A stretch of DNA of 63,044 bases, counting the filler, from Candidatus Fermentibacterota bacterium (GTDB taxonomy: Bacteria > JAFGKV01): NCBI GenBank assembly GCA_016928395.1. It is 10 parts of 10 records of this genome, joined end to end, with 100 filler letters (N's around TTAATTAATTAA, not from the genome) between each part and the next. Parts side by side here need not be neighbours in the genome. Positions count along the whole stretch, not along the records: positions 3,922 to 9,451 come from JAFGKV010000244.1; 9 more parts are not named here. The stretch is one strand, 5' to 3'. Positions 579 to 17,476 of the stretch are shown piece after piece (the first letter of the stretch is position 1; every line of letters starts with the position of its first letter). A program made the translations under genes and the position numbers. The notes beneath the pieces were generated by a model that ran no database searches, was not told the origin of the DNA, and saw only the letters and a program-made list of their open reading frames with translations.

Positions 579-2231
579 TCAGCCACCGCCGGTAGGAGTG
601 GCGGCAGCCAAGGCATCCTTGTAGTTCCAAGGCATCCATGCCGAAGGGTTGGCGTGGACCTCTGCGTAGTGCCGCTGGAGTGCCGTGAGATAGTGGAAGG
701 GGTTCACACCGTTGAGATAACAGGTGTGAATGAGGGTCATGTGGATGTCGCCGACGAGGGCACCGTTGGGAGTCAGATAGAAGAGCGAATTCCTGCGGTG
801 CCGTATCACCATTTTCAGGGCGCGCTCGACGACGTTGTTATCGATTGGCGCCCCGGCTTTATGCAAGAAAAGCGTAAGCGCTTTCCAGTGTCTGAGCATG
901 TATGCTATCGCAGCGCCCAAACTCGAGTTCTTCTCCACTCTCTTCTCTTCGAACTGCACCTCGAGCCATACCTGGAGGCGATCCATGAGGATTCCGCTGC
1001 TATCCTGGTGAAATGCCAGGCGCTCTTCAGGCGACAAGTCCATGTGCTTTGCCACGGCGTCGTTGACATAGACGTCCCGAAAGATCTCGATCACGAAGCT
1101 GCAATCAACAGGGAAGGACTCCACCAGATCGACAAACTGCCTTCTGGCATGGGCACAACAGTTGGCCAGAATGACTGCGAAGTCCTTGGGCGTGTTGCAC
1201 GACGAGGCGTCACACATGTGAATGGGAGCAGCCAAACCCTCCGCGCGTCGCCGCAGCACATCGGCCAGATTCTCTCCGGCGTGCTGCCGGCCGGTGAAGA
1301 AGAGCGCGACCTTGTGTCCCTGGACCATCGAGACAATGCCAGTTGTGAATACCCCCGTTCGGGAAGGAGCGCCTTTGGTATTGCGATCAGCTCTGGCGCT
1401 CTCCAGCATGAGAGCCATGACTTTCATAGGGGTGTCGTCGTTGTGGACAACGTCACCCTGGGCTGCTTGTCGTATGAACTCCTCAAACGCAGACGAGTAC
1501 CGAGCGGCCGCACGATCCACGAGCTCCCACTGGGTTGCCGCGGGTACGGGGACTCCGAGGCTGGCTTGTAGTTTTTCGAGTCGATTGAACGGGAATCCGT
1601 TCCCGTACTTCAGGACTCCGACTACCGTTGCCGCCGTGGCGTCATACTTGTCAGGCCCTGCATCCGCCGGCGTGTCGGCGGTGAATACAGTACCGCACAA
1701 GCCGCAGCGCAGCTTCTCGAGCTCATAGACGGTCGCCTTCAAGGGCGGCTGGCCAACCACTCGAACTACGGTCCCTGGTTGCTGAGACTGATACACAGTA
1801 CCCTGTGCGCATTCCGGGCATGAATTCCCCGCTTTGAGGTTCTCAAGGGTAACCCGGACTCTAGCAGCGCCGGTGTACGCAGCGGCCCCGTTACGGCCAT
1901 GGCCCTTGCGTTTCGTCTTCGGTACCGTCGGCCTCTCGGTTTGCACCTGAGTGTCGTCGACAGATGTGGGCTCCGCGGGGGCGGGAGTCTCCGTTGTCTT
2001 GAGCACGTTCTTCGTCTTCTCGGTAGAGGGGCCGAAGATCATCTTCAGAAGGCGCTGGATCGAGTGGCTTTTCTCCTGGTAGGCATGAGCCAACTGGGCA
2101 TGCGTGTCCAGAAAAAGGCGAAGGATCTCATAGTCACCCTCGACGAGTGATCGGTTTTCCAGCCGAACACACAGGGCGGCAAACTCCTCAGGACTGAGGT
2201 CTTTGTTTCGTAGAACCGCGATGCTTGTCAA
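579..2231 (-). CDS. tnpC: IS66 family DDE transposase TnpC
   Basis: FGPSTEK, Zn-finger CPEC...CGLC, HNDDTP, CCAHARRQF, PIDNNVVERALK. Likely TTG start at 2231 with GGAGG RBS, overlapping the upstream stop codon. Confidence 0.92.
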   Translation of the reverse strand: MTSIAVLRNKDLSPEEFAALCVRLENRSLVEGDYEILRLFLDTHAQLAHAYQEKSHSIQRLLKMIFGPSTEKTKNVLKTTETPAPAEPTSVDDTQVQTERPTVPKTKRKGHGRNGAAAYTGAARVRVTLENLKAGNSCPECAQGTVYQSQQPGTVVRVVGQPPLKATVYELEKLRCGLCGTVFTADTPADAGPDKYDATAATVVGVLKYGNGFPFNRLEKLQASLGVPVPAATQWELVDRAAARYSSAFEEFIRQAAQGDVVHNDDTPMKVMALMLESARADRNTKGAPSRTGVFTTGIVSMVQGHKVALFFTGRQHAGENLADVLRRRAEGLAAPIHMCDASSCNTPKDFAVILANCCAHARRQFVDLVESFPVDCSFVIEIFRDVYVNDAVAKHMDLSPEERLAFHQDSSGILMDRLQVWLEVQFEEKRVEKNSSLGAAIAYMLRHWKALTLFLHKAGAPIDNNVVERALKMVIRHRRNSLFYLTPNGALVGDIHMTLIHTCYLNGVNPFHYLTALQRHYAEVHANPSAWMPWNYKDALAAATPTGGG

Positions 2232-3112
2232 TTCACGCCTCCCGAGAGCACCTTCCGGAACCGGCGAGTGAGGGGGTACCCAAGGATGAGCTTGATCGGC
2301 ACTCGCTTCTCGTAGGTCGGTGCGTTGTTTCCCCGGCCCGACGTCTCGCCCAGGACGAGCCAGTTGGCGGCGCGGTAGCACGTCCCCCTATACCGCGCCG
2401 GATCCGTGAAGGTCTCAAGGTAATACACCGGATGCCCGTACACCTGCTCCCAGTCCCGGGGCAACATGCTGGCCATGCACCCAAGGATGTGGGAAGCCAG
2501 ATAGCGAACGGAGACCCATGGCAATATGAGAAACCGCGTATTATAGGCGATGAACCGAATGTTCCTCCGCCGGGCTTCCGGGGACCAGCCGATGAACCGA
2601 TCGCGAATCCCCAAATGGCGTGGTGCCGAGGACCACGCCATGCAGGCAAGGGGCCGATCCTGCGAGTATATGATGTATTTCAGGTGCTCTCCCACGGGTT
2701 GCACATAACGAAGGTAGTGGAAGCACTCGATGAGGCTGCCGAAGAGGCCCTCGTCAGAGGTCCGTCGTACCTGACGAAAGTCGAGTGGTTTCACCGAAGC
2801 CAGATTCCCCTCGATGGGGGTCTGGTCGATGAGGACGTGCGGAGAAGGCCGCTTGCGGTGAGCTAGCGGGTTAGGGTTGCGTCGCCGTATTGGAGGCAGC
2901 TCGATGAATCCTTTGCGATGGAGGGCGAGCATGTACCCTCGGCAGACCATGTCACGAAGGACCCCGTTGGGCTGCCGCCAGTCCCATGCCTCGCAGAGGA
3001 GTTTCGAGAGGGCCCGCCGGCTGGCGGTGGGGCTTCGGGCTATGAGTCCCTTGATGAACTCGACGTCTTCACGCGTGACCGCTTTGCCGCGATATCTCAG
3101 GAGCTCTTCCAT
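2228..3112 (-). CDS. DUF4338 (Druantia DruA-like) domain protein
   Basis: SRRALSKLLCEAWDW, RDRFIGWS, NTRFLILPWV, LASHIL, LETFTDPARYRGTCYRAANW are characteristic DUF4338 motifs. Confidence 0.85.
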   Translation of the reverse strand: MEELLRYRGKAVTREDVEFIKGLIARSPTASRRALSKLLCEAWDWRQPNGVLRDMVCRGYMLALHRKGFIELPPIRRRNPNPLAHRKRPSPHVLIDQTPIEGNLASVKPLDFRQVRRTSDEGLFGSLIECFHYLRYVQPVGEHLKYIIYSQDRPLACMAWSSAPRHLGIRDRFIGWSPEARRRNIRFIAYNTRFLILPWVSVRYLASHILGCMASMLPRDWEQVYGHPVYYLETFTDPARYRGTCYRAANWLVLGETSGRGNNAPTYEKRVPIKLILGYPLTRRFRKVLSGGVN

Positions 3113-3184: not shown

Positions 3185-3547
3185 TCAACCCGTTGCCGCC
3201 ACGCTCCGCCATGCGGGCGCTACGTCTGCGTGCTCGGGGTTGCCGTTCCACAGGAGCACCTGGAGCTGGTGAGCCTCAAGCGGCGAAGCCCGTTCGCCGG
3301 GGCTTTGGGGCCACCAGCGGAATCGTCCCGTTGAGAGCCGCTTGAGCATGAGCCAGAACCCCTGCCCGTCGTAACACAACAATTTCACGGACGTCTTCCG
3401 TCGGTTGCGGAATACAAAAATCGCCCCGGACATTGGGTCGGACTGCAGCTCATCCCGGCAGACTCGTGCAAGACCGTCGATGCCGCAGCGGAAATCTGCA
3501 GGCTGAATGGAAAGAAGAATCCTCATCTGAGCGGTTACTTGAATCAT
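3185..3547 (-). CDS. tnpB: IS66 accessory protein TnpB
   Basis: PADFRCGIDGL, FVFRNRR, KLLCYDGQGFWLMLKRL; ATG at 3547 overlaps the tnpA stop (ATGA). Confidence 0.92.
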   Translation of the reverse strand: MIQVTAQMRILLSIQPADFRCGIDGLARVCRDELQSDPMSGAIFVFRNRRKTSVKLLCYDGQGFWLMLKRLSTGRFRWWPQSPGERASPLEAHQLQVLLWNGNPEHADVAPAWRSVAATG

Positions 3548-3821
3548 CGCTCGGCACTCACGAAGGCCGTCGTCAGCGCGACCAGATCGGCATCCACCGT
3601 GCCCTGAAGGGAGATGCGCATTCTGACTCCTGACGGGCTCTCCAGCTCCACGATGCACGGAGAAGAAAAGACCGGCGGTGCCGTACGGACCTCAACGAAC
3701 TTAGGTCGCCTACTCGAAGAGCGCCGGCGGCCAACAGTTCCCCCGCTTGTCCGCCCCTTCAAGCGTTCGTAATTCACCCCGAGCGCCTTCGAGACACAGT
3801 GGACCCCGAAGTCATGCGCCA
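3544..3821 (-). CDS. tnpA: IS66 accessory protein TnpA-like, 5' truncated
   Basis: GVHCVSKALGVNYERLK (HTH-like), FVEV, CIVELESPSGVRMRI; frame is open to the contig end. Confidence 0.75.
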
Positions 3822-3921: not shown

Positions 3922-4106
3922 CGCTCGCAGGCGACAGGGTTCAGGGATCGGGGTTCAGGCTGGCCTCCTTGCTTCTTTACCTCTTTGCTTCTTCACCATT
4001 GCTCCCAGTTTGCGCCCTTTGCGGCTTTGCGTGAGATCTTGCCCCCCTTTGAGCCCTTAGAGTCTTTGAGGTGAAATGTATGCCCTTGCTTCCTTTGCGT
4101 TCTTTG

Positions 4107-4133
4107 CCTGCCTGTGCGTCGCACGCAGACAGG
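4107..4133. repeat. Mini palindromic element CCTGCCTGTGCGTCGCACGCAGACAGG
   Basis: Imperfect palindrome; relatives at 17084-17140 (nested), 19213-19231 and 56197-56226. Confidence 0.75.
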
Positions 4134-4198
4134 CGTCTTGGCGTGAGACCCTTCATGCTCTTCATGGTGAACTTCGCTTCGTTCCGCCTTCCGCGCTC

Positions 4199-4684
4199 CT
4201 ATCTCCTTACTCCTTCACCCTCGCTTTGCTCGCCAGTAGGTAGGTTTTCCAGATCGTCCAGGTCCTTGTGACGACCGCTGGCAGCTTTGTTGGTTCTCAG
4301 ATGTCTCAGGCTGATAACGTTCACCCTCTCCCCGTCGATCTCATCGACGACGCGTTCGGCAAAGCACTGGGCGAAATCCACGCCGGAGATCGAGGTCAGC
4401 AACTCGACCCGTACGGGAGGAACGCCCATCCTGATCACGCGATTCTCCTGCAGGAACAGCTCACGAGTCAATTCCGGCACACCGAATCCGAAGGCCGAGA
4501 GGGTCTCGACGAGCTTCTGGGCGTTGCCCGGATTGACCGCAACCCAGAGATCCATGTCGGCAGTGGCACGTGGATAGCCATGATATGCAACGGCGTATCC
4601 CCCAATGAGGAGATACTCAACTCTGTGCGAGTCGAGTAACCGTAAGAGTTCTTTGAAGTCTGGTGGAAGCTGGATCGTAGCCAT
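4199..4684 (-). CDS. Nucleotidyltransferase (DUF6036/MNT-like)
   Basis: YLLIGGYAVAYHGYPRATADMDLW (GG...DxD) and NKAASGRHKDLDD. Confidence 0.85.
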   Translation of the reverse strand: MATIQLPPDFKELLRLLDSHRVEYLLIGGYAVAYHGYPRATADMDLWVAVNPGNAQKLVETLSAFGFGVPELTRELFLQENRVIRMGVPPVRVELLTSISGVDFAQCFAERVVDEIDGERVNVISLRHLRTNKAASGRHKDLDDLENLPTGEQSEGEGVRR

Positions 4685-4805
4685 AAACGATCTGCCGCAT
4701 CAGTTCGAGTGCCCTGAGCCGGTCGGCCGGGCTTCGGGATAGCCAGAAGGCGATATCGTGCCCCTCTTCCGAAAGCGGAACGACATCGAACGATTGCTTG
4801 TCCAT
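4617..4805 (-). CDS. Small hypothetical partner of the nucleotidyltransferase
   Basis: DIAFWLSRSPADRLRALELMRQIVYGYDP; overlaps the downstream gene by 68 nt. Confidence 0.65.
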   Translation of the reverse strand: MDKQSFDVVPLSEEGHDIAFWLSRSPADRLRALELMRQIVYGYDPASTRLQRTLTVTRLAQS

Positions 4806-5394
4806 CCGGGTGGTAGCCACAGCGCCCACGCGTCACCTCTGCGAGTTGGGAGCACGGATGCCACGATGCGAGCGACTCCCGCATTCGGGGGCACTTTCAG
4901 GCAAGTGCTTGATGCTTTCACCACATTGAATAGAAAGGGCACCGAGCCCATCCGGTCAAGCCCCTCGCGGCTCGCTTCGCTCGCAGGCGACAGGGTTCAG
5001 GGTGGCTTGGCCTGGGGTACTGGAATGGTGGAATGGTGGAAGACTGGAATGATGCAGGAGCATCCACCTCCATCCCGTGCTAGCCCATCCACCCGTTCCG
5101 CTAGCGTTTCGGATTTCGGGCTTGGCCCCGCACCTGCGGATGCTGGCGTGGTCCAGCACCACTGGATGCTGGCGGTTCGTACTTCGGTCTTTCGGCGGCA
5201 TCCGCCGTGGCTCTGCCGCCCAATCTCCTCACTCCTCACTCAGCCTCGCTTCGCTCGCAGTTGTCAGTCATCAGTTCTCAGTTCTCAGTTCAAGCCGATC
5301 CGCCGCCCGGTTTTCCTCTTAACCTCTTTTCTTCTTCACCCCTTCACCCCTTCACTTCTTCACCCCTTCACCCTTGCCCGGCGTGGGCAATATG

Positions 5395-5416
5395 ACTACA
5401 TTGCAGGAGTTGTAGT
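5395..5416 (+). promoter_or_regulatory. Putative TA operator (ACTACA-N10-TGTAGT)
   Basis: Inverted repeat ~30 nt upstream of the antitoxin start. Confidence 0.45.
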
Positions 5417-5443
5417 TGCATCGTTGAGTCGGGAGGTGCCGAG

Positions 5444-5722
5444 GTGCCAAGCGTCGGAATCAGGGAGCTCAAGATCAATCTCAGTCGATACGTCGAATCT
5501 GTATCGCAAGGCGATGAAGTATTGATCACAAAGCACGGAAGGGTTGTGGCACGACTCGTCTCGGTTCAGAAGAGGAGCCCCAGGCTGAAGGATGAGCTGG
5601 CCACGCTCGCGGCAGAGGGTCTCATCCGGCTCCCGGCGGAGAGGCCCGGCAAACGTCAGCGTCGACTTCTGAGGATCATGGGTCTTCCCATGTCTGAAAT
5701 GGTGATAGAGGATCGGCGGTGA
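5444..5722 (+). CDS. Phd/YefM family antitoxin
   Basis: VGIRELKINLSRYVESVSQGDEVLITKHGRVVARLV; GGAGG RBS; 4-nt overlap with the toxin gene. Confidence 0.9.
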   Translation: MPSVGIRELKINLSRYVESVSQGDEVLITKHGRVVARLVSVQKRSPRLKDELATLAAEGLIRLPAERPGKRQRRLLRIMGLPMSEMVIEDRR

Positions 5723-6153
5723 TCCTGTACTGCGATACCAGTGCTCTCGTAAAGCTGTACTTCCATGAGAGTCATTCGGAAGAGGTCATTGCACAACGGG
5801 GAGAGGCCGAAGCCCTGGCCATCTCGTCAGTCGGTTTTGCTGAGTTCTTCGCGGCGCTGAATCGGAAGCAGAGGGAAGGCGGTCTGGAGGCGAGAGTCCA
5901 CCAACTCGCGGCGGCGCGCTTCAGGGAGGAATGGCTGAGCCTCGTACGGGTGGAGATCACCGAGGAGTTAAACGAGACGATCATGCGTCTGCTGGCCGCT
6001 TATCCTTTGAGAGGGTTCGACGCGATCCATCTCGCGTCCGCGCTCATCCTACGCGAACGGCTCAAGACGGCGGAGATTCGGTTCGCATCCTTTGACGAGC
6101 GACAACGGCGCGCCGCGGAGCAAGAATCCTTGACCGTGGTTCCGCGCCTCTGA
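5719..6153 (+). CDS. vapC: VapC family PIN-domain toxin
   Basis: YCDTSALVKLY, LRGFDAIHLASA, FASFDER. Confidence 0.9.
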   Translation: MILYCDTSALVKLYFHESHSEEVIAQRGEAEALAISSVGFAEFFAALNRKQREGGLEARVHQLAAARFREEWLSLVRVEITEELNETIMRLLAAYPLRGFDAIHLASALILRERLKTAEIRFASFDERQRRAAEQESLTVVPRL

Positions 6154-6439
6154 AGGGAGGGAACGCCCTAACTCCCGCTCCTGGCCTCGCGCGGAGAGTG
6201 CCGTTCACCGCTCACAGTTGACAGTCGATCGCGGCTGGAAGCTCTCCTCCCCGTCTTGGATTTTCACGTGAGTTAGGACGTTATCCCACACCGTGAGCCA
6301 GGCGGCGGCGCCACGTGGCAAGGTGGGACTCACGTCCGCGCTTGGTGCTCCGGATTCCCCGCGCAGTGGGCCGAACTGCCGACTGGCTCCCCCCCGACTT
6401 CTTCACTTCTTCACCCCTTTACCTCTTCACCCTTTCATC

Positions 6440-6471
6440 CCCTTCATGCCCTTCATGCTCTTCATGGTGAA
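6440..6471. repeat. Dispersed 9-mer-period repeat CCCTTCATG(CCCTTCATG)YTCTTCATGGTGAA
   Basis: Near-identical copies at 4149-4171, 6440-6471 and 7342-7373. Confidence 0.8.
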
Positions 6472-6710
6472 GATCCATCTCCGCGTTCCCCCCTCCGCGC
6501 TCCGCATTCCGCACTCCTATCTCACATTTCCCTTGCTTCCTTTGCGTGAGACCCTCGCTTCCTCCTCTCCTCGAGATTCTGCTTGCGCGGCCCCCCTTTC
6601 GGTGTATTATACCGGCAGTTCGTACGCTTCTTGCGCTAGTAGTGTTTGCGATCTGATGTGGGATTTCTCCCGGTCCCACAAAGGTTTCCTCGGGGAGGAG
6701 GGTTCATCCC

Positions 6711-6956
6711 ATGAAGTATGAAAAGCCTATCGTTCGAGATCTGACCGGCCGTTCCGCGGCAGGCGGACCGCCTGTAATTCTGGGGTGCGGATATGGAAAT
6801 CTGGTTGACAACAACTGCAATCCTGGACAGACACTTAGCCAACCGGGATTGTGTCTGGCGGGCACAGAAGGCCCGGAGGATTACCAGGCTGGTAACTGCG
6901 CTCCTGGGACCCTCGCTTCTCCTGATTGCCTTACTGGTTCCGCTGCAGCCCCATAA
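6711..6956 (+). CDS. Putative RiPP precursor with five CxxG motifs (orphan paralog of 11039-11293)
   Basis: GGAGGAGG RBS; leader KYEKPIVRDLTG; CGYG, CNPG, CLAG, CAPG, CLTG. Confidence 0.8.
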   Translation: MKYEKPIVRDLTGRSAAGGPPVILGCGYGNLVDNNCNPGQTLSQPGLCLAGTEGPEDYQAGNCAPGTLASPDCLTGSAAAP

Positions 6957-6961
6957 TCGTC

Positions 6962-7133
6962 GTAGGTTGGGTTAGCCTGCGTAACCCAACAGCCCTCTGA
7001 CCTGCAAATAGCTCAACAGCCCGCAGGGCGAGTCAGCGTACTCGCCCTGCGGGCTTGTCATTCTGGGTGGCGGCTACAGCAGTTGCTGAGTGAGAAGTAC
7101 CCGTAGGTTGGGTTAGGGCAGCGTAACCCAACA
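6962..7133 (+). repeat. Two GTAG-type REP elements (6962-6991, 7103-7133)
   Basis: GTAGGTTGGGTTAG-x-GCGTAACCCAACA palindromes; a reverse copy lies at 9603-9632 and a partial copy near 9968. Confidence 0.85.
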
Positions 7134-7447
7134 TTTCGCTGTCATCGACCACCGCGGAGCGGTCGCTGTTCGTCCCCGCGCGGAGCATGGGGACGAGCCT
7201 TGTCTCGGGCAAGGTCGGAGCCTTGCCTCTACACAGTCTCCACCCACGCCTCCCTCGCTTTCGATATCGCCGTCGCCCCCTGAACGCCATCCCCGAGCCA
7301 CGCCTGCCCCGGCGGCGGTGATGCGGCGCCCATTCTGTTCTCCCTTCATGCCCTTCATGTTCTTCATGGTGAAATCTGTACCCAGGGGTGCACAACCTGG
7401 CCCCACCCCATCTCCTTACTCCTTACTCCTATCTCCTCACTCTCTCT

Positions 7448-9418
7448 TCACTTCAGAAGAACCAACGGCAGAACCTCCTCAGCCCCACCCGAGAAAGCCC
7501 GCACGAAGTAGACGCCCGAGGGCGCCGGCGCGCCGAGGGCGCCCCGCCCATCCCACACGGCCTCATGGGCCCCGGGAAGCACTGGGCCGTGGATCAATCC
7601 GGCAACCCTTTCACCCGCCAGGTTGTACACCGCCATGTCTGCTGGTCCCGGGCCGACTGTGCGATAGGCGATAGACACCCGATTCGTGAAGGGGTTCGGG
7701 AAGGCCCTCTGTAGCATGAGAACCCCCACGAGGGGCGCAGGCTCGTTGACATCGATGCTCAGCGGTAGATCAAGTCGGCCCCAGCCATAGATATTATCCG
7801 GACCGGTCTGCCCCATGTCGATGGCATGCGCCTGCAGGCAGTCCCATACTTGAGCCAGGGTCCACTCCGGGAACGCCCCGATCACCAACGTTGCCGCCCC
7901 CGCGACATGGGGACTGGCAACCGAGGTCCCGGAGAAGCCAGGGCCTGACGAAAAGGTGGCAACCCTGTCTGGCCCGGCGATCTCCGGCTTGGTTCTTCCA
8001 TCGTAGGTCGGCCCCTGGGAGCTGGAGGCCTCCTGGGGGCCGGTGGTCCAGTTCTCCTTGGCGATAGCGCCGACGGCGAAGGCGCCGACCGCGTCGGCGG
8101 GTTGCAGAAGGCTGCCGGCGAAGGTTCGATACTGCAACGAGTGAAACGCACTCACGATGGTCAGCGTATTCGGCTGGGTCGTGTGATATTCCTTCACGGC
8201 TACCGCGTATTCGCCGCCGGAGGGGATTGCGAAGCCGACTTCCTCAGTCGGCGGTTGCGAGCCTGTCTGGCGGGTACAGGACGAGGCAACCATTTCCCAC
8301 ACGGCGTCGTTCTTGCGATAAAGGTTCAAATCGTAATCCTCAGCCGTGAGAGGCCAGGCGCTCCAACTCAGGTAGATCCACACGGTATGGCCAGCGCTCA
8401 AGGTTCCCAACGAGTTGAACCCAATGCTCGGGTTCGCCGCGAAGTCATGCAGGCTGTCCCCATCGGCGTCGACGAAGGAGCCCCGGTAGTGATTGTAGGC
8501 ATGGTTGCCGATGGCATTTGCCCAGAAGATGCCGTGGTCCGCCGCGTCATCGGCGATCTGGCACACGGTGCCGGTGCCGTCGTGCCCGCCGGTATTCGCA
8601 TAGCCGACGGAATGGTTGATGACCCGGATCCCATTGGCGATGCAGTAGTCCTTGGCATTGGCCAGATCAACCTCGCTGTAGGTGTTGATCAGGGTCAGGT
8701 CAGCATCAGGCGCCATGTCGTGGACAATCTCGGCGACTGCGGTCCCATGCCGGCTCAGAGACTCCATGCCGTAGCCGGTGAAATCCACGGTGGTTACATC
8801 TTCAGGAATCTCTCCGGCCGCAATAGCCTGGCTCAGGTTCTGGAAGCCGACATCGACAACGGCAACCTTAGCGCCGGCCCCTGTAAACCCATGGGCGTGC
8901 CACTGGTCCGCTCCAGTGAGCGCAACCCCTTCGCTAGTGACTAGCGGGATTGGACGCGCCGGCGCTCGCACGTATCGCACACCCCGAAGGTCGGCCACCG
9001 CACGTAACTGTGGAATGGTAACGGAGCACACATGCAGATTCCCATTCTGACCGAGGATTTGGGCGCCGCGGGATGCGAGGTGACCCTGGGGCAAAGGCTT
9101 GTAACCTTCAACAATGACCCGAACACGGTTCCCCTCGGCATCAATGCCCCATCCTTGTGCGGCCAAAAGCGCCGCCTGTTCACCATGAAGTTCGTACGAC
9201 ATTACGAGACGGGCCAGCACATCCTGCATGGCCCCGAATTCCACGCCGGCCGGCGCGGCGGCCTCCCCATCGGGGACGGTGCGCACGGTCAAGGCCATGG
9301 CCGTCGCAGCCGCCAGTGTCATGAAAGAGTACATGATTACAGCGGCAATCCGGTTGAATCGGAGTAATGGGCTCATAGGTATCATCTCCCTCCTAAAGGG
9401 AACGGTGGCGGCACTCAT
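7448..9418 (-). CDS. Secreted S8 (subtilisin-like) serine peptidase with C-terminal FlgD-Ig/secretion-tail domain
   Basis: Catalytic triad VAVVDVGF, HGTAVA, GTSVASPHVAG; signal peptide; tail FPNPF...VYNLAGE...WDGR...SGVYFVR. Start codon uncertain. Confidence 0.9.
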   Translation of the reverse strand: MSAATVPFRREMIPMSPLLRFNRIAAVIMYSFMTLAAATAMALTVRTVPDGEAAAPAGVEFGAMQDVLARLVMSYELHGEQAALLAAQGWGIDAEGNRVRVIVEGYKPLPQGHLASRGAQILGQNGNLHVCSVTIPQLRAVADLRGVRYVRAPARPIPLVTSEGVALTGADQWHAHGFTGAGAKVAVVDVGFQNLSQAIAAGEIPEDVTTVDFTGYGMESLSRHGTAVAEIVHDMAPDADLTLINTYSEVDLANAKDYCIANGIRVINHSVGYANTGGHDGTGTVCQIADDAADHGIFWANAIGNHAYNHYRGSFVDADGDSLHDFAANPSIGFNSLGTLSAGHTVWIYLSWSAWPLTAEDYDLNLYRKNDAVWEMVASSCTRQTGSQPPTEEVGFAIPSGGEYAVAVKEYHTTQPNTLTIVSAFHSLQYRTFAGSLLQPADAVGAFAVGAIAKENWTTGPQEASSSQGPTYDGRTKPEIAGPDRVATFSSGPGFSGTSVASPHVAGAATLVIGAFPEWTLAQVWDCLQAHAIDMGQTGPDNIYGWGRLDLPLSIDVNEPAPLVGVLMLQRAFPNPFTNRVSIAYRTVGPGPADMAVYNLAGERVAGLIHGPVLPGAHEAVWDGRGALGAPAPSGVYFVRAFSGGAEEVLPLVLLK

Positions 9419-9602
9419 TGCCTAGTCGGCACAGCCACCAAGGAACACCGCNNNNNNNNNNNNNNNNNNNNNNNNNNNNNNNNNNNNNNNNNNNNTTAAT
9501 TAATTAANNNNNNNNNNNNNNNNNNNNNNNNNNNNNNNNNNNNNNNNNNNNAATGCCGTTTGGGATGCGATCCGGCGCGGCCAAGCCATAAGGGAGACTG
9601 TG

Positions 9603-9632
9603 TGTTGGGTTACGCACGCTAACCCAACCTAC
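9603..9632 (-). repeat. GTAG-type REP element
   Basis: Reverse complement of the 6962/7103 family. Confidence 0.8.
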
Positions 9633-9710
9633 GGGGACCATATGCCACAAACAAGTGGGGGCCCCGGGCCCGCCCGGACGATACGTGGTGTAACGTCCAC
9701 CCCTCCCTCC

Positions 9711-9792
9711 GTCATTGTCCGACTCGTTCGGGCAATCCAGGCCCGAGCATCTGAACCTATGCCCGTATCACTCGGTCAAGCCGGGTGATGAC
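9711..9792. repeat. Palindromic intergenic repeat (GTCATTGTCCGACTCGTTCGGGCAATCC...CGGTCAAGCCGGGTGATGAC)
   Basis: GTCAT...ATGAC terminal inverted arms with internal hairpins. Confidence 0.5.
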
Positions 9793-10044
9793 ATTCGTGC
9801 TCTTCACCACACCCGCTCGTTCTGTGCCCTGGGTGGGAACGCCGCTCCACTCCTTGGCGGTGAGGCCGAACGCCGACTCCGTCCCCTGGCGCTGGATGCT
9901 GGTGCCGCGGCGGGAAGTTACAGCTTAGCTCGGGGTGGGCGCCAATGCGCTCGCGGATGGGGGAGCTTGTTGGGTTACGCTCGTGAACCCGATCGACGTG
10001 AACTCCAGTGGATGAAACAGGCGTCCAGCGGAGGCGGTACAGCC

Positions 10045-11022
10045 CTATGCCACGACAGAACGGATTTGGTCCCAGTGGATGCTGTGGGGCATGAATGTCA
10101 TTCGACGGAGCGGGACCCCATAGCAAAGATCAAGAAAGAGCCCAAATACGGCGGATTTGAGTGCTCTTGGAAGAAGCATCGTGGTGGAAGCATTGTCATG
10201 CCAAACAAGCTGAAGAACATCGGCCGGGCTTACTGGTGCGAGAGAAAACGAACTACCCTTCTCAAGAAGAAACATGGCACCAATTCTCCCGGCCATCGGA
10301 GACCGTACTCCAGCTCCCAAAGGCGTGGAATACGCAACGAAGCCGCGGTCCTCTCTCTTGACCAGTATGTGGTCGTCGTCAAGAACCGATAGACCGTCGG
10401 CAAGACGAGCGACAGTTGATTTGCCCCCGCCGTTTGGACCCAAAAACAATACGGAGACTTCACCCAGCAGGACGGCGCAGCTGTGAACAAAGAACGCTGA
10501 CCAAAGAGGCAGAAACAACGAGAAGATCTGCCGAAGGTTCGATGCCACGCGAGCGACGGAGGGAAGCCAGCCAGCAATGGGAGGATCTAAATCCGCATCA
10601 TCATAGATCGTGAGGTCGGCCACTCGCGTCTCATAATCCCACACCAACTTGATCCTGCATTCCGGCCAGGCAGCCTGATGCTCAAGTCGAGTCGGTCCGA
10701 GCAAAACGGGATGAAGACCTTCCGAATCCCTCGAGAGCGCTGGAGTGTGGCTCTCTATGCCAAGACCCCCGGGAGCAACACCGTGTACATCGTCCCAAAT
10801 GGAGCGATGAGGGCGGGCAGAAGTGGTTCTGACCCTCCTAATTCGATTCAGAACATCTGGGGGGCGGGGCTCGACCTCAAAGGGGGCGAACTTCGGGCCA
10901 TCTATGCGAGGCAGTGGGGTGTTAGCCTCGGTTCGAAATGCGATTCCGGCAATCCCATGATCAAAGGCCATGAAGCCAGCGCTGCTACGAAAATGCATCG
11001 CGGCGGATGGGCAGCGTTGCAT
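10045..11022 (-). CDS. ScmC/HprK-related P-loop protein of the radical SAM RiPP cassette
   Basis: FFVHSCAV...LFLGPNGGGKST...VLDDD...YSTP; lies directly downstream of the precursor gene. Start uncertain. Confidence 0.75.
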   Translation of the reverse strand: MQRCPSAAMHFRSSAGFMAFDHGIAGIAFRTEANTPLPRIDGPKFAPFEVEPRPPDVLNRIRRVRTTSARPHRSIWDDVHGVAPGGLGIESHTPALSRDSEGLHPVLLGPTRLEHQAAWPECRIKLVWDYETRVADLTIYDDADLDPPIAGWLPSVARVASNLRQIFSLFLPLWSAFFVHSCAVLLGEVSVLFLGPNGGGKSTVARLADGLSVLDDDHILVKREDRGFVAYSTPLGAGVRSPMAGRIGAMFLLEKGSSFSLAPVSPADVLQLVWHDNASTTMLLPRALKSAVFGLFLDLCYGVPLRRMTFMPHSIHWDQIRSVVA

Positions 11023-11038
11023 GTGTTTCGAAGACGAG

Positions 11039-11293
11039 CTAGCCGCCGGCTTGCGTTCCCACGGTGCAACCGATCAGAGCATCTGAGCCGGTCTGGCACT
11101 TCGGCATCTCGGGGGCAGTGCCAACGGGCGAGCAGCCTCTTCCGCCTTCTACCTGCAATCCTGTTTGGCATTCGGTCCACGGATATTCGCCATCTTGACA
11201 CCATCCAAGAGCCATTTGCCCCCTGACTCCCAGTCCACTCAAATCCCTCGCCGCCGGGGCTTCGTACTTTGGTCTATGGCGGCTTCGTGTCAT
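11039..11293 (-). CDS. Putative RiPP precursor with five Cys (CxxG repeats)
   Basis: GGAGG RBS; leader KYEAPAARDLSG; CQDG, CQTG, CSPVG, CQTG, CTVG; 22 nt downstream of the rSAM gene. Confidence 0.85.
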   Translation of the reverse strand: MTRSRHRPKYEAPAARDLSGLGVRGQMALGWCQDGEYPWTECQTGLQVEGGRGCSPVGTAPEMPKCQTGSDALIGCTVGTQAGG

Positions 11294-11315
11294 GACGTCC
11301 TCCCCTCAGGACGGC

Positions 11316-12455
11316 TCAGGCGGAACGGGTCCGCGAGGCCGGAAAAATGCCCGCTTTACTAGCGATATCACAGAAGAAGTAAGGCGCATTCAGGCGGCCC
11401 GCAACATGAAAGTTGTTGGCGACGCATTCGCCGCGGCACATATCGCGGTGCAAACAGTCGCCGCAGATGCCTTCCAGCTTGAGGGGAATCAAGTCCCGCA
11501 AGAGTTTCAGGCCGGGGCTGTCACACCAGACATCCCGGAGGTCGTCATAGGCGATGTGGCCGTAGACCAGCTCGGGAACCGTGACGCCGATGCCGCAGAG
11601 CGCCAGCTTGCCATCGGCCAACATGCCCAGAATGGTCAAGACGCCGCAGGTGCCGAGATTGCCTCTGGACAGCTCGCGAATCGTGCGGAACGCAAAGGGG
11701 ATGTCCAAGAAGATCGAGATCTTGGCCTTGGGACGGAGTTCGCGGTTCAGATGGCCATTGAGCTCGATGATATCGGAGATCTGAAGCCCGTGGTCTCTAT
11801 GAAACCCTTCGCCGCGGCCCACGAGCTGGACATGGTTAAACTTGACTGACCCGGCGCCGATGGACTCTGCGAAGGCGACCAGATCGTCGACCTGGCCGAT
11901 ATTGCCCTTGTGCAGGGTACAGATGACCTGAGGCCGGTAGCCGACCTCGACGAGGTTCTTGATGCCGTTGACCGCTCGATCAAAGCACCCTTCGACGCCG
12001 CGCATGTACTCGTGCATCTCTGCTGTTGCGCCATCGAGGCTGACCGAGATGAAGCGCATCTTCTCTTTGCTCTTGAGGAACTTCGCCATGTCTCCATCGA
12101 CGAAGGTGCCGTTGGTCTCGATGGTGATGGAGAGGCCGGCGTCGTTGATGATCTCGACCAGCTCCCGGAACTGGGGATGCAGCATGGGCTCGCCGCCCGT
12201 GAGTTTGAAGGCCGAAAGGCCAAGGGACCGGCCCTCATCGATGGCCTTGCGCACGTAGTCGAGCTTGATGTGATCGACATCGCGGCCTTCCGGATCGAAC
12301 GACGGCGTGATCCAGCAGTGGCGGCAGGCTAAGTTGCAGCCGCCCGAGGCATACAGGTATATCGAGCCAAGGGGTGGGACGCCCTCGGGGAGATCGATGG
12401 TGGCTTGAGTTGGGGCCTCAGCAACAGTTTGAGGCTTCTCGTCCAGACACGACAT
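11316..12455 (-). CDS. Radical SAM/SPASM maturase, SynChlorMet ScmF-like
   Basis: YLYASGGCNLACRHCWI (CxxxCxxC), TGGEP, ETNGT, SLDG; SPASM cysteines CGV...LCGIG...CGDCLHRDMCRGEC...C. Likely ATG at 12455. Confidence 0.88.
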   Translation of the reverse strand: MSCLDEKPQTVAEAPTQATIDLPEGVPPLGSIYLYASGGCNLACRHCWITPSFDPEGRDVDHIKLDYVRKAIDEGRSLGLSAFKLTGGEPMLHPQFRELVEIINDAGLSITIETNGTFVDGDMAKFLKSKEKMRFISVSLDGATAEMHEYMRGVEGCFDRAVNGIKNLVEVGYRPQVICTLHKGNIGQVDDLVAFAESIGAGSVKFNHVQLVGRGEGFHRDHGLQISDIIELNGHLNRELRPKAKISIFLDIPFAFRTIRELSRGNLGTCGVLTILGMLADGKLALCGIGVTVPELVYGHIAYDDLRDVWCDSPGLKLLRDLIPLKLEGICGDCLHRDMCRGECVANNFHVAGRLNAPYFFCDIASKAGIFPASRTRSA

Positions 12456-12787
12456 GGTAGCCTTCCGTTTCGGCAAGGAATCGCCGGTAGCAGTCTTCAG
12501 GGTTTGCTCTATTGAAATCACCGGTAAGCTGGTGGGCCATGCCTGGGCAGCTCCCGTTGCAGTATTCGTTCCACTCGCAGTCTTCGCAGCCGGGCACATC
12601 GCGCATCGGGATAGACCGGCGTTCGCGAAGCGCGATCAAAGTCGGATGGTTGTGCCAGATCTCCTCGACGGAATCCGTCAGGATGTTCCCGAGCACCAAA
12701 CCGGGGAGCATGTTGCAGGGCACGATGGTGCCGTCGTGGAGGATGTCGAGGCGGTTGAAGATGCACCCGCAGGCAGTCAAGTAGCCC
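12418..12787 (-). CDS. SPASM domain of a second radical SAM enzyme, ScmE-like (5' truncated)
   Basis: GYLTACGCIF...DGTIVPCNML...GNI...CEDCEWNEYCNGSCPG...DCYRRFL. Confidence 0.85.
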
Positions 12788-12887
12788 NNNNNNNNNNNNN
12801 NNNNNNNNNNNNNNNNNNNNNNNNNNNNNNNTTAATTAATTAANNNNNNNNNNNNNNNNNNNNNNNNNNNNNNNNNNNNNNNNNNNN

Positions 12888-12949
12888 CGGCGAGATCATT
12901 CAGGTCAGGGGCAGGAGTGTCTGCCCGGAGCGGGAAGAGGCTGCCACAC
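12888..12949. repeat. 62-bp terminal direct repeat of contig 12888-16552 (second copy 16491-16552)
   Basis: CGGCGAGATCATTCAGG...GAGGCTGCCACAC is identical at both contig ends. Confidence 0.95.
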
Positions 12950-12984
12950 AGACTGCAGAACAGCAGCAGGAGGGATAGCCTCAT
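12888..12984 (-). CDS. 5' part of an exported 172-aa protein that continues at 16490-16069 across the circular junction
   Basis: AGGAGG RBS and ATG at 12984; MRLSLLLLFCSLCGSLFPLRA-DTPAPDLNDLA joins in frame to AWAADRLDEGFSFEPETLWG. Confidence 0.8.
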
Positions 12985-13044
12985 TCATACCTCCTGGGTT
13001 TGAGGGAGGATCATGGTGGTGGCGCGGGGAGAGGGGGATGGGGC

Positions 13045-13110
13045 GTCGATATCGATATCGATATCGGAATCGAAGGGGAGAACCGATATCGAAACCGATA
13101 GCGATAGCGA
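13045..13110. repeat. Hexamer-period (ATCGAT/ATCGCT) hairpin repeat
   Basis: GTCGATATCGATATCGATATCGG...CCGATATCGAAACCGATAGCGATAGCGAT; related tracts at ~19321-19360 and ~43150-43190. Confidence 0.7.
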
Positions 13111-13216
13111 TTGTGCGCGAGGAGCATTCGGCACGGCGAGGCCCACACTCCGCTCGACATCGTGGGCAACGGCCGCGCGCACCGCCACCCCCTGAACCCT
13201 CGGCAAACCCGGCCGC

Positions 13217-13828
13217 CTAGCCCAACAACGTCACATACACAACCACCACCAGGTCTGTTCGCTTCGCGTAGTCGTCAATTGTCTCGGCCGTCCGAATAGA
13301 CGAAACCGAATCCCCTGCGCCAAACACCCACAGGGGAATCTCCGTGCCCGCGACAAGCCGTGCACTACCAGGGCAACCGCGCGTCCTTCCACGCCGTTCT
13401 CCCAGGGGGATTGGTCTGGCTCTTGCCGAACCGGACGATCCAGGCTCCCCAACTGCTTCCGCAGGGCCGCATCGGAAGGCCAGCTCAAGAGCGCTTCCGG
13501 ATTCCCTGGTGGCAACGGCTATGACTTGTGTGCCAGGGAGAAGTGGGCTTAGCTCCATCCGGGCAAGGGTCTCCCGAGTGCCTCCTTGCCAGACCTCCGC
13601 CCGTAGGCTGATCCCATGGGTGAATGGGACGGAGTACGTGTACTGGTCAACCTGAATCCCAAGGAGCTCCATGGCGGCACGGAACCCCGGCCCAGACATC
13701 CCCAAAGGTCCCGGCGCCACGACGACAGGGAACCGTTGGGGAGTTCCTGATGCGCCCGATGAGAGGCCGGCGAGAACGCCGAGCGTGCAAAGGCAGGTCG
13801 CCGAAAAGCGCAGATCGCTCATGAACAC
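13217..13828 (-). CDS. Hypothetical exported protein
   Basis: AGGAG RBS; N-terminal hydrophobic signal-like segment; 203 aa. Confidence 0.6.
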   Translation of the reverse strand: MFMSDLRFSATCLCTLGVLAGLSSGASGTPQRFPVVVAPGPLGMSGPGFRAAMELLGIQVDQYTYSVPFTHGISLRAEVWQGGTRETLARMELSPLLPGTQVIAVATRESGSALELAFRCGPAEAVGEPGSSGSARARPIPLGERRGRTRGCPGSARLVAGTEIPLWVFGAGDSVSSIRTAETIDDYAKRTDLVVVVYVTLLG

Positions 13829-14033
13829 TCCATCCCTTCTCCTCCTCGCTGGTTCCTAAGCCAAAACCAAAGCCAGGCATCAACGTCGTTCGCAGTCTGG
13901 ACAGGGCAGCCGTACACCTTCTCTCCTGAGCCCCGCAGAGGCACCTGGTTCGAAGACCAGGTGCCTCCAGTCAGCCCTGCTGGTCAGGGCAGGACCAGAC
14001 CCACCGGGTTCCTCGAACGCCCGTGATGTCCTG

Positions 14034-14345
14034 TCAGTTCTGCACCTGTTGGGTACAACGATCACCCTGTGACCAGTAGGTGAGGGGATCGATCTTGCAT
14101 TGGCAGAAGCAGTAGGCGCCGCCAGGAGGGAATGTGCAGTAGCAATTGCACGTGCCCGCAAGGCACCCGCCCGGCGTAGCGCAGGACGCGGAACATGGGA
14201 TGAATGCACTTGCACTGCAGCTACAGCCAGGAGGTGGGTTGGGAGGATCATTCATGTCTGCCTGCGCACCATCCATCAACCCGACGTTGACGAGGGTCAC
14301 CACTGCAAGTACAGCCATGAGTCTCACGAAGATGTGGGTTCGCAT
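14034..14345 (-). CDS. Secreted Cys-rich small protein (12 Cys in ~74-aa mature part)
   Basis: AAGGAG RBS; Sec signal ending AQA; CSC, CNCYC and CFCQC motifs. Confidence 0.8.
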   Translation of the reverse strand: MRTHIFVRLMAVLAVVTLVNVGLMDGAQADMNDPPNPPPGCSCSASAFIPCSASCATPGGCLAGTCNCYCTFPPGGAYCFCQCKIDPLTYWSQGDRCTQQVQN

Positions 14346-14414
14346 TGGCGTTCTCCTTGGGTAGTTACACGAGTTGAGAACTGGATCAGAGCCAGGCAGC
14401 TACGGCAGGGCGGG

Positions 14415-15518
14415 CTACCTCCTTTCCATCAGGGGTTCGCGCACTTGGGCTAGTAGAGGTTGGCCATCGTCGCGATAGAGCAGGAGATTCAGCCGGCCGG
14501 CCGAGTCGAACTCGGCGTCGCGCACGTCCTTGACTCGCACGAACTCGTGATTGTCAGATTCCTCCAATTCGAGAAAGACCGGCTGCGACAGCGACCGGCT
14601 TCGGGAATCGAATTGAACAAAGACGTCACCACACAGAAGGCCACAACCCGAACCTTGATCCGCGGCAAGGGGACCGAACGTGCGCAGAAAGGTCATATCG
14701 TTCCAGGGAGCCAACATCTTGCCCACATCCTGCCCGGCAAGCTGAAGGTCGTAATCCGCGACAAGCGCTCCGTTCGCATCGTATTCCTGGAGTGCTGCCC
14801 ACGGCTTCCTCTTGCTCAGGCAGGGGAGAAGGATGAAGAACCCTCCGTGCCTGCTCCGCACCATCGAGAACTCAAGGTCCTGGATGATGGGGGACGGAAC
14901 AAGACCCCTGGTATGAACCCTCAGCGCCGCTCCCTCGGAGCGGATTCCCCAGGCCCCACCTTGCTGTTCTGCCCGGTAGATGCGCGGCGAGTATCCCTCG
15001 AGCTCGGTTCCAACCCACACTCCGCCGGCGTGCCACACACCAATGTCACACATGGTCCCCATTGTGTTCATACCGTTGTACGCGGCACGAGGAACACCGC
15101 TGGGATCCAGGAACTGCAACTTCTGATCCTCAAGCGCCCATAGGCTGCCCCCATCCTCAACTGCGAGCCTTCGCAAATGCCTGAACTCCCCTGGACCCTC
15201 GCCAATGCGCCCAATGCCGCGTACCGGGGTGCCGTTCGGACTGTACACCACGATTCGACATGCACCGCGATCCGCAACGTAGATGCTGTCGCCTGGGCCC
15301 ACCGCAATGTCGATAGGCGCTATGAGCTGTGACAGAAATGTATCTTCCCCGGGAGCCGGGTCAGCGGCCTCTGATGTCACCCAGGCTGCCTGCACCGCGA
15401 CGGCACGCGATGGGTCAACAACCAGGACACCTCGTGATACGGCGGCGTGGGGCCCGCGGCACGTGAGCAGCAGGCCCGCCAATCCCGCTATGATCACCGA
15501 AGGTTGAGATCGAGTCAT
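14415..15518 (-). CDS. 6-bladed beta-propeller (NHL-like) exported protein
   Basis: PIDIAVGPGDSIYVADRG...IGRIGEGPGEF; GGAGG RBS; ATGA overlap with the upstream gene. Confidence 0.8.
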   Translation of the reverse strand: MTRSQPSVIIAGLAGLLLTCRGPHAAVSRGVLVVDPSRAVAVQAAWVTSEAADPAPGEDTFLSQLIAPIDIAVGPGDSIYVADRGACRIVVYSPNGTPVRGIGRIGEGPGEFRHLRRLAVEDGGSLWALEDQKLQFLDPSGVPRAAYNGMNTMGTMCDIGVWHAGGVWVGTELEGYSPRIYRAEQQGGAWGIRSEGAALRVHTRGLVPSPIIQDLEFSMVRSRHGGFFILLPCLSKRKPWAALQEYDANGALVADYDLQLAGQDVGKMLAPWNDMTFLRTFGPLAADQGSGCGLLCGDVFVQFDSRSRSLSQPVFLELEESDNHEFVRVKDVRDAEFDSAGRLNLLLYRDDGQPLLAQVREPLMERR

Positions 15519-16072
15519 ATGTTCCTCCAGCCACACCATTGGGCCAAGACCAGTTGCACCTCTCGCAGGGTAGTTCCACCGAGGTCAAGACGTGTCCTCC
15601 CATTGGGCTCGACGAGCCGCACTGCCCGGCCAGGTGAGAGGCTGTCCACGAAAGGAAGGAGATCTCGCGCCCGATTGCAGCCCGTGACCGGGAACGAGCT
15701 TCCCGCATACTGCGCGAACCTCCGTAGGGACGCTGTGTCCCCGCCAACGACCAGGAGTACAACGGAAACCCCAGATCCTGACTCTCCATCCCGGAGGACC
15801 CTCACCAGTTCCAACGCCTCCCGGCCCTTGTTGAGATCGACTTCCACGATCAGCACGTCAGCGGTGTCGCAGGGAATGGTCACAGGCCGACCGAGGATGT
15901 CATGCCCGCTCCAGGTGACACGATCTCCATACGATACCATCGGGGTGGTTTCCGCCTTCGCCGATACGGCGTGCCGTCTTGCGACGATCTGGCGGCCGAT
16001 GATCGCGCCGTTGACCATCAGGAAGGCTGCCGCCGTGATCCAGATGACCCGCGTACTGACCGTTCTGCTCAT
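15515..16072 (-). CDS. Membrane-anchored thioredoxin-like-fold protein lacking CxxC (tentative)
   Basis: N-terminal TM segment; GDRVTWSGHDILGRPVTI resembles a TlpA/AhpC N-terminus; ATGA overlaps on both sides. Confidence 0.5.
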   Translation of the reverse strand: MSRTVSTRVIWITAAAFLMVNGAIIGRQIVARRHAVSAKAETTPMVSYGDRVTWSGHDILGRPVTIPCDTADVLIVEVDLNKGREALELVRVLRDGESGSGVSVVLLVVGGDTASLRRFAQYAGSSFPVTGCNRARDLLPFVDSLSPGRAVRLVEPNGRTRLDLGGTTLREVQLVLAQWCGWRNI

Positions 16073-16552
16073 GGCTTTTCGTCGGCCCATTGGTCTTCCA
16101 TCTCCACCAGAAACCCCACATCCCGCAGTCTCTCTCCAAGGCCCGGCAGCCTGCGCTCAAGGGCGCGGAGGAGACTCGCGTCATCTCCGGCAAGTGTGCG
16201 GCGGAGCAGTCGCCCCTCCAACTCAATCACACGGTCCAGCGATTCGTGCCGCTTGGCGCCCTTGGACCCACCGGGGGAAGATCGCCGCGCCTCCAGGGCT
16301 GCGATGCTGTCGCCAAGGACAACAATCCGGAGATCCAGATGCGCACACGAGCCGCATCCGCTGCGGTCGAGGGATTCGTAGACCAGGCCGATGGTGACGG
16401 TGTCGCGCAGGACCTTTAGGAAGCTCAGGTCCCCCCACAGGGTCTCGGGCTCAAAGGAGAAGCCTTCGTCCAAACGATCGGCGGCCCAGGCGGCGAGATC
16501 ATTCAGGTCAGGGGCAGGAGTGTCTGCCCGGAGCGGGAAGAGGCTGCCACAC
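16069..16552 (-). CDS. 3' part of the exported hypothetical protein starting at 12984
   Basis: Open frame to the contig end; contains CGSC; its stop overlaps the next ATG. Confidence 0.75.
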
Positions 16553-16813
16553 NNNNNNNNNNNNNNNNNNNNNNNNNNNNNNNNNNNNNNNNNNNNTTAA
16601 TTAATTAANNNNNNNNNNNNNNNNNNNNNNNNNNNNNNNNNNNNNNNNNNNNCATTCTCACCCTTCGATTCCGGACAGTGCGTGACTCCCGAACCCGTAA
16701 CATGAGACGGCTCCTCAGTGAAGAAGGTTCCATGGCCCCAGCTCCGAGATGCATTCGGGGCGGGGTGACCTCTTGTAGATGCGTGAGCCATTGGGGCAGG
16801 GCTTGACATGGGA

Positions 16814-16839
16814 GGAGCTGCCTGGGGTCAGAGTACCAG
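16814..16839. repeat. 26-bp direct repeat GGAGCTGCCTGGGGTCAGAGTACCAG (second copy 18551-18576)
   Basis: Exact match between the two copies. Confidence 0.85.
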
Positions 16840-16959
16840 TAACGGCGTCCTGGGGTCAAATCTTTAATCTGTAATCTTCGCGCGAGAGGTCCCCTGGTTC
16901 CGGTCATTGGGGCCAGCTCGGCGCCGTGCCCCTGCTCCCCGCCGGGTCACATTCACCGG

Positions 16960-17446: not shown

Positions 17447-17476
17447 GATACACCTCAAGCCTCGCAGGAGGTCCCC

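Follow-up and report, generated by a model that had tools for sequence, protein, structure and literature searches.

A solitary gene for a predicted ScmA-like peptide precursor in a Candidatus Fermentibacterota genome, and its relatives

The window, that is the whole stretch of DNA analysed here, comprises 63,044 bases from ten contigs of one metagenome-assembled genome (343 contigs, 4.79 Mb, completeness 94%, contamination 3%), joined by runs of N and TTAATTAATTAA spacers. A short open reading frame encoding a peptide with five CxxG modules was located on contig C306. The contig has 2,789 bases to the left of this gene and 2,495 bases to its right, and the features around it are listed below by window position and strand.

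3922-9451, contig C306, 5,530 bases
6382-6547, plus, 8-/9-nt tandem-repeat block (CTTCACCC and CCCTTCATG types, families D1-D4) upstream of the peptide gene
6694-6702, plus, Shine-Dalgarno-like sequence GGAGGAGGG, with AGGAGG 9 nt ahead of the ATG
6711-6956, plus, whole precursor gene, 81 aa and stop (open reading frame, homologues and profile matches)
6711-6785, plus, leader, residues 1-25, MKYEKPIVRDLTGRSAAGGPPVILG (14-22 of 25 residues common to eight subfamily relatives)
6786-6953, plus, core, residues 26-81, five CxxG modules (Cys 26, 36, 48, 63 and 73)
6962-6990, plus, REP-type hairpin, copy 1 (GTAGGTTGGGTTAG..GCGTAACCCAAC), fold of -13 kcal/mol
7020-7053, plus, 14-bp G+C-rich hairpin from folding and a consensus scan, candidate terminator in the gap between the peptide gene and the convergent protease gene
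7103-7132, plus, REP-type hairpin, copy 2, fold of -15.6 kcal/mol, z -3.5
7333-7430, plus, second copy of the tandem-repeat block in the same orientation (families D2 and D3), downstream
7448-9418, minus, S8 subtilase ending in a FlgD-Ig/T9SS-type sorting domain (PF00082, 65 bits; FlgD_ig; Por_Secre_tail)

The gene starts with the ATG at 6711 and ends with the stop codon at 6954-6956. An 81-residue reading frame with a strong ribosome-binding site of its own had been proposed from the sequence, and the start, the frame and GGAGGAGGG were all verified. Homologues on two metagenome contigs (L044 and L045) carried AGGAGG or GGAGGAGGGG at an equal distance from their start codons. All five cysteines of the peptide belong to CxxG motifs, and they are spaced 10-12-15-10. 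The leader and the core evolve differently among the eight subfamily relatives, with 14-22 of 25 leader residues identical versus 3-9 of 39-44 core residues outside the shared Cys and Gly positions. Ribosomal peptides with a leader that a recognition protein reads classically show this contrast between a conserved leader and a variable core. Close relatives of the peptide displayed this RiPP precursor pattern, with the leader kept and the core varying. Judged by sequence, the reading frame is a real gene and its predicted product is a genuine ScmA-like RiPP precursor. A chance frame would be conceivable where long spurious frames are many, as in high-GC DNA. Against it stand several independent loci that conserve the start, the ribosome-binding site, the leader and the Cys/Gly columns, and a family of hundreds, so that the probability of a chance frame is close to nil.

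The peptide had no Pfam match, and C306 gave no Rfam match at E<=0.1. A search of the ESM Atlas with the peptide returned only clusters of unnamed 'hypothetical protein' entries. No sigma-70-type site was found in a promoter scan, which is uninformative for this lineage. No RNA contig from two runs of the source's study lay over the peptide gene; the matches were to the REP at 7103-7133, with unrelated flanks, and to 4669-4829 (one contig), and they have no bearing on expression.

The S8 protease gene, intact in the window, is convergent with the peptide gene and lies 491 bases downstream of it. Between them, the 57-nt stretch 7012-7068 folded at -37.6 kcal/mol (z -7.6), and 0 of 200 shuffled sequences were as stable; the consensus terminator scan recovered only the inner 5 pairs of the hairpin (7041-7053), with a weak T-tract. 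The two tandem-repeat blocks bracket the peptide gene together with the hairpins, and further copies lie at 3964-4214 and 5307-5397. Such blocks occupy most intergenic spaces of C306 and also the first ~390 bases of contig C125, and they resemble an intergenic element dispersed through this genome. C306 also encodes a nucleotidyltransferase upstream of the peptide gene. A Phd/YefM antitoxin gene and a PIN-domain toxin gene with overlapping stop and start (5444-6153) lie 557 bases upstream.

Searches of C306 for radical SAM, PqqD, ScmC-like and GT4 proteins were empty over the 2.5-2.8 kb that the contig offers on each side of the gene, in agreement with the earlier statement that its contig encodes no modification enzyme. 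The stronger wording, that the gene lies far from any maturase, was not supported, since the 5.5-kb contig spans too little sequence per side for this to be shown and leaves 33 bases upstream of the S8 gene. In an independent assembly of what is probably the source run, one 3,121-base contig spanned window positions 6442-9451; therefore, the adjacency of the peptide and protease genes is not a scaffolding artefact. This assembly broke at tandem-repeat blocks, including the one at 6382-6547, and its contig extended merely 111 bases beyond the end of C306.

A second precursor with a similar leader is encoded on contig C308, in a cassette with the following features.

9552-12787, contig C308, 3,236 bases
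9604-9632, minus, REP hairpin, copy 3, ~410 bases past the last cassette gene
10045-11022, minus, divergent ScmC-like P-loop protein, 36% identical over 98 residues to the ScmC-like protein of the sister species and in the position of ScmC of the orthologous cassette
11039-11293, minus, cassette precursor, whose leader is the closest among the paralogues (BLASTP, alignment and profile)
11316-12599, minus, ScmF-type radical SAM/SPASM enzyme (TIGR04251, 384.2 bits against a cut-off of 400, E 7e-115)
12418-12787, minus, C-terminal fragment of an ScmE-type radical SAM/SPASM enzyme (TIGR04250 positions 251-353, 114.8 bits), the gene being cut by the contig end

The earlier naming of the cassette genes held: one enzyme is ScmF-type, and the other, of which the C-terminal third is present, is ScmE-type. 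The models for PapB, AlbA and StsB gave weak matches to the cassette enzymes. The best NCBIfam match of the ScmC-like protein had an E value of 0.0026, and no Pfam family was matched. Whole-assembly searches did not recover the N-terminal part of ScmE or the ScmD gene of this cassette. As listed, the ScmF frame (start 12599) shares ~180 bases with the end of the ScmE fragment; the overlap in the sister species is 13 bases. Its true start probably lies further downstream, as in that species, because the match to the family model does not begin before residue 76.

The cassette precursor has cysteines at residues 32, 42, 54, 66 and 76 (spacing 10-12-12-10), CxxG at four of the five and a tail of 8 residues. 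The near-identical cysteine spacing and the common leader of the original prediction were both recovered: the BLASTP alignment of the two peptides covered the leaders only, with 9 of 17 residues identical (E 4e-4), and the two proved to be genuine paralogues. Their ends are equally long, as had been stated, with 8 residues after the last cysteine; the 9 given earlier are obtained only by counting that cysteine.

The data also fit a common genome for the two contigs, as proposed. Their tetranucleotide distances fell within the null, with 13% and 18% of random same-sized pieces of large contigs equally distant; a lineage-specific REP is present on both, and the sister species has both loci. The REP family does follow both the peptide gene (6962-6990 and 7103-7132, plus) and the cassette (9604-9632, minus). 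With one mismatch allowed, the REP core was found in 11 copies on 7 contigs; exact full copies numbered five in this genome, one in a same-genus genome and four in a same-family genome.

A peptide search of 41 genomes gave matches in only two, the present genome and one of the same genus (G001, the sister species). Relatives were also encoded at four metagenome loci. We aligned 11 sequences: the peptide, the G001 homologues, the metagenome relatives and the paralogues of the present genome. No variation was seen at Y3, P6, the five Cys or four of the five Gly that follow them, and L11 and the fifth Gly (G51) were nearly invariant. The profile of this alignment detected 52 proteins at E<=1e-3 among 1,656 word-sharing candidates from a 5.8-billion-protein set, all of them unnamed or 'hypothetical' and without a Pfam domain. 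Against 1.84 billion 50%-identity representatives it detected 505 at E<=1e-3 and 21 at E<=1e-10.

Family statistics were calculated for 190 sequences of <=150 residues out of the 197 from both profile searches, leaving out seven long low-complexity repeat proteins. An aromatic-x-x-P leader motif near the N-terminus was present in 187 of the 190, and 1,087 of 1,165 cysteines (93%) were part of CxxG. The distance between successive cysteines was 10 residues in 486 of 975 intervals, 11 in 223 and 12 in 125; the 15-residue spacing found in the peptide occurred in only four. Usually 6-9 residues followed the last Cys. The peptide displays the marks of this wider family: the aromatic-x-x-P leader with a downstream Leu, at least four CxxG modules at a spacing of about 10-12 residues, and a 6-9-residue tail (8 in the peptide). 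Its leader variant RDL[ST]G was found in 14 of the 190 sequences, versus 39 with x-hydrophobic-x-PLG.

The nearest catalogued system is SCM (SynChlorMet; ScmA, TIGR04252; ScmD, TIGR04248; ScmC, TIGR04249; ScmE, TIGR04250; ScmF, TIGR04251), and the peptide resembles ScmA in its Y-x-x-P leader, CxxG repeats and short tail. Paralogues in the present genome and relatives elsewhere belong to ScmD-E-F-A-C cassettes; the peptide is solitary. On the ScmA model the peptide reached 12.1 bits against a cut-off of 35 (E 0.17, residues 59-78 only); therefore, it belongs to the wider family and is not a curated equivalog. The best copy of the genome, the precursor on contig C329, scored 26.6-29.2 bits on the same model. 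ScmD, ScmE, ScmF and ScmC genes do not adjoin the peptide gene within the 2.5-2.8 kb available on each side on the 5,530-base C306. Relatives starting with MKYEKP were found inside canonical cassettes at two metagenome loci (L046 and L047), which encode PqqD, ScmE, ScmF, the peptide, a ScmC-like protein and an S26-type peptidase. A search of accessible full texts found no report of an SCM product or its chemistry. The family is thus catalogued (TIGR04248-52), large and, as far as found, chemically unstudied, and the peptide is an additional member. A term search did not find SCM in the accessible text of two papers on rSAM RiPPs (PMC10288494 and PMC10114670).

Five precursors on five contigs were detected in the present genome with the 11-sequence profile, three beside a radical SAM gene of their own and two solitary.

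Precursor 1, C306, the 81-aa peptide, no maturation genes on the contig
Precursor 2, C308, the cassette peptide, with ScmF, an ScmE fragment and a ScmC-like protein as neighbours
Precursor 3, C329, seven modules, with PqqD, one radical SAM enzyme, a 58-residue ScmE remnant and an S26-peptidase/ScmC-like fusion
Precursor 4, C88, behind PqqD and radical SAM genes and ahead of a ScmC-like gene
Precursor 5, C207:2000-2263 (L016:1387-1656), minus, no maturation genes on the 11-kb contig

The other four were 29-36% identical to the peptide in the 11-sequence alignment. The proposal that an HMM of the two peptides be scanned over the genome was only partly borne out: that HMM returned nothing else significant, and the five precursors came from a motif scan and the 11-sequence profile. 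At least four CxxG motifs were present in 26 of 91,684 reading frames, and only five of these had the leader. The inspected frames lacking it were long or Arg-rich off-frame translations, save one Cys-rich secreted protein. A frame on C318, picked up by a strict leader expression, was rejected as it had no Cys core, and a PqqD-radical SAM pair on C3 was left out since the profile found no CxxG precursor there.

Dispersed precursors processed in trans by one ScmE/ScmF-like machine, yielding a combinatorial peptide library, had been proposed. The dispersal was confirmed, with two of the five precursors lacking enzymes nearby. The single machine fits poorly because three of the five lie beside radical SAM enzymes of their own, and five diverged paralogues do not constitute a library.

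The second SCM-type cassette (C329:296-4528; L009, L022 and L032) has one complete radical SAM gene; its ScmE remnant corresponds to the N-terminus, and its 586-residue fusion joins an S24/S26-type peptidase to a ScmC-like domain. The solitary precursor on C207 adjoins an IS200-type Y1 transposase and is convergent with the gene of an FG-GAP protein bearing a FlgD-Ig/T9SS tail. This T9SS-tailed neighbour mirrors that of the peptide gene, and the two leaders share R-S-A-x-G.

In the sister species, two tandem homologues were 51% and 45% identical to the peptide. Their first 21 residues were nearly unchanged, and the Cys and Gly of all five CxxG modules were invariant. They are part of an operon-like run on a 19.4-kb contig, in the order double PqqD, GT4, two precursors and ScmC-like, with the following partners.

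G001, double-PqqD protein, 338 residues, ScmD model 44 bits
G001, GT4 glycosyltransferase, PF00534, 82 bits
G001, ScmC-like protein, TIGR04249, 44 bits

No radical SAM gene was detected at positions 4000-19446 of this contig, which extend ~9 kb from the precursor pair in one direction and 6 kb in the other. ScmE and ScmF had been named as the enzymes acting on the peptide; its G001 subfamily speaks against them as cognate enzymes, sitting as it does with double PqqD, GT4 and ScmC-like proteins and without radical SAM within those ~9 and 6 kb. The canonical ScmD-E-F-A-C cassette of G001, orthologous to the C308 cassette and complete, is on a different contig (C222). The S8 orthologue lies divergently upstream of the G001 run (541.6 bits, versus 69.1 for the next paralogue). 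The arrangement thus differs between the two genomes, the peptide gene being convergent with the S8 gene in the window and the G001 run divergent from it. The G001 S8 orthologue (L020:12164-14125, plus) lacks ~45 residues including the catalytic-serine motif, which may reflect either an inactive protease or a misassembly.

When the double PqqD, GT4 and ScmC-like proteins of G001 were searched against the whole present assembly, only distant paralogues were obtained, with best identities of 29%, 33-35% and 28-36%, respectively. The closest relative of the double-PqqD protein (29-30% identity) is a solitary ScmD-like PqqD encoded near a contig end (C125:392-676, minus; L021), whose gene overlaps the end of a co-oriented upstream metallophosphoesterase gene. 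Two more ScmC-like genes (C53 and C340) lie mid-contig among unrelated neighbours.

Solitary homologues were also found on two metagenome contigs of 472 kb (L044) and 563 kb (L045), 45% and 41% identical to the peptide in the best segment. No PqqD, ScmC-like or radical SAM frame was detected within 8 kb on each side of either. HMMs for PqqD and ScmC-like proteins, run on six-frame translations of these stretches and of C306, gave no match there and strong matches at the G001 and L046 loci. The neighbours encode ECF transporter parts, an ICMT-family methyltransferase, aminotransferases and a dehydrogenase on L044, and an aminotransferase, a DUF72 protein and efflux proteins on L045. Solitary placement of the precursor therefore recurs, on C306, on C207 and on the two long metagenome contigs. 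At L044:5660-9770 the homologue lies between ECF genes (CbiQ-type T, ABC ATPase and S component) and the gene of an ICMT membrane methyltransferase, all on one strand.

The modifying enzymes of the peptide must be encoded elsewhere, lost or unassembled. We regard the first as the likeliest fate of a genuine ScmA-like precursor, with a probability of about 0.55: capture of the leader by a PqqD-type protein, followed by maturation by enzymes encoded elsewhere. The precursor would comprise a leader (Y-x-x-P...L, here KYEKPIVRDLTGRSAAGGPP) and a fast-evolving core of five C-x-x-G modules. A PqqD-type protein of the ScmD class would bind the leader and present the core to the distant enzymes, and a protease would then cut off the leader, the adjacent S8 enzyme being one candidate. 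Two enzyme sets can be put forward. The first would be the ScmE/ScmF radical SAM cassette of C308, presumably forming Cys-derived cross-links; the second, without radical SAM, would consist of double PqqD, GT4 and ScmC-like proteins as beside the G001 homologues.

Maturation in trans by the C308 set is favoured by the leader of the cassette precursor, which is the closest to that of the peptide, and more generally by the four PqqD genes of this genome, one of them solitary, and its three radical SAM cassettes with CxxG precursors. Against maturation in trans, the genome has no close homologue of the G001 enzymes, and C306 is too short to exclude neighbours. The low score on the ScmA model (12.1 bits) also counts against this reading. 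The presence of adjacent cognate genes in the G001 subfamily further indicates that maturation in trans was not the ancestral arrangement in the genus.

An alternative is a stranded relic, in which an ancestral cluster beside the S8 gene would have been broken by recombination at the flanking repeats, leaving the precursor unmatured or decaying. G001 retains the full cluster beside its S8 orthologue, the present genome has no close homologue of the double PqqD, GT4 and ScmC-like proteins, and the gene differs from the G001 locus in its side of S8 and its orientation, with the same tandem-repeat block on both flanks. The core of the peptide is also the most divergent of the subfamily, including the rare 15-residue spacing (4 of 975 intervals). 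Decay is contradicted by the intact reading frame, ribosome-binding site, leader and five CxxG modules, and the solitary homologues on the two long contigs retain the leader, which argues that solitary copies are under selection. We consider a relic possible, if doubtful.

A further explanation is that the gene only appears solitary, its enzymes being encoded just past the contig end or in sequence missing from the assembly. C306 does end 33 bases upstream of the S8 start, where the cluster starts in G001; the genome is in 343 contigs with breaks at repeats, and the assembly misses the ScmD gene and the N-terminal part of ScmE of the C308 cassette. Nevertheless, whole-assembly searches with the G001 proteins gave distant paralogues only in a genome rated 94% complete, and the independent contig added 111 bases past the end. 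Such an artefact seems unlikely to us. Enzyme loss and non-assembly are indistinguishable, because C306 ends where a G001-type cluster would begin and pieces of the C308 cassette are provably missing from the assembly.

It is also conceivable that the peptide works unmodified, for example as a small Cys-rich metal- or redox-active peptide, and shares only ancestry with RiPP precursors. This would suit the solitary copies among housekeeping genes, such as the L044 copy behind ECF-transporter genes and before the ICMT-family methyltransferase gene. The leader and not the Cys-rich core is conserved across the solitary copies, the opposite of what a core-borne function predicts, and canonical cassettes are headed by the identical leader type. 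An unmodified function is accordingly most improbable.

As to the chemistry, the subfamily with the GRSAxGGPP leader might represent a branch of CxxG peptides free of radical SAM, in which a double-RRE protein, GT4 and a ScmC-like P-loop protein modify the core and precursor genes are often distant. This is an improbable reading. If true, the modification would be, say, glycosylation or phosphorylation rather than a thioether, the class of RiPP would be new, and the window would represent its fully detached state.

Ranthipeptides and sactipeptides (SCIFF/thermocellin and freyrasin PapA/PapB) resemble the SCM type in their Cys-repeat core, in having a radical SAM/SPASM enzyme as maturase and in the PqqD-type domain that binds the leader. 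The SCM-type motif differs from theirs, being CxxG at a 10-12-residue period and not CxxxD or the SCIFF pattern. SCM also involves an HPr-kinase-like ScmC besides two radical SAM enzymes, and a thioether in its product is putative. In prochlorosins, one promiscuous enzyme serves many dispersed precursors, whose leaders are conserved and whose cores vary. The present genome shares the separation of precursor genes from enzyme genes and this contrast between leader and core. Unlike prochlorosins, it has just five precursors, three with enzymes of their own; the leaders differ between paralogues, and no single shared enzyme is evident.

By itself, the locus adds two modest points and opens no long-standing question. 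Hundreds of 50%-identity clusters match the profile of this CxxG SynChlorMet-type family, and its precursors can be solitary, which matters for genome-mining tools restricted to radical SAM neighbourhoods. The link, inside a single genus, between this peptide subfamily and a radical-SAM-free cluster with a glycosyltransferase provides a concrete pair of enzyme sets for one substrate.

An IS66-family element was observed on contig C305 (579-3658), with the transposase gene at 579-2381 (minus) and IS66 Orf2/TnpB at 3185-3658 (minus). Between these two genes lies a reading frame for a DruA-like (Druantia) protein (2228-3112, minus).
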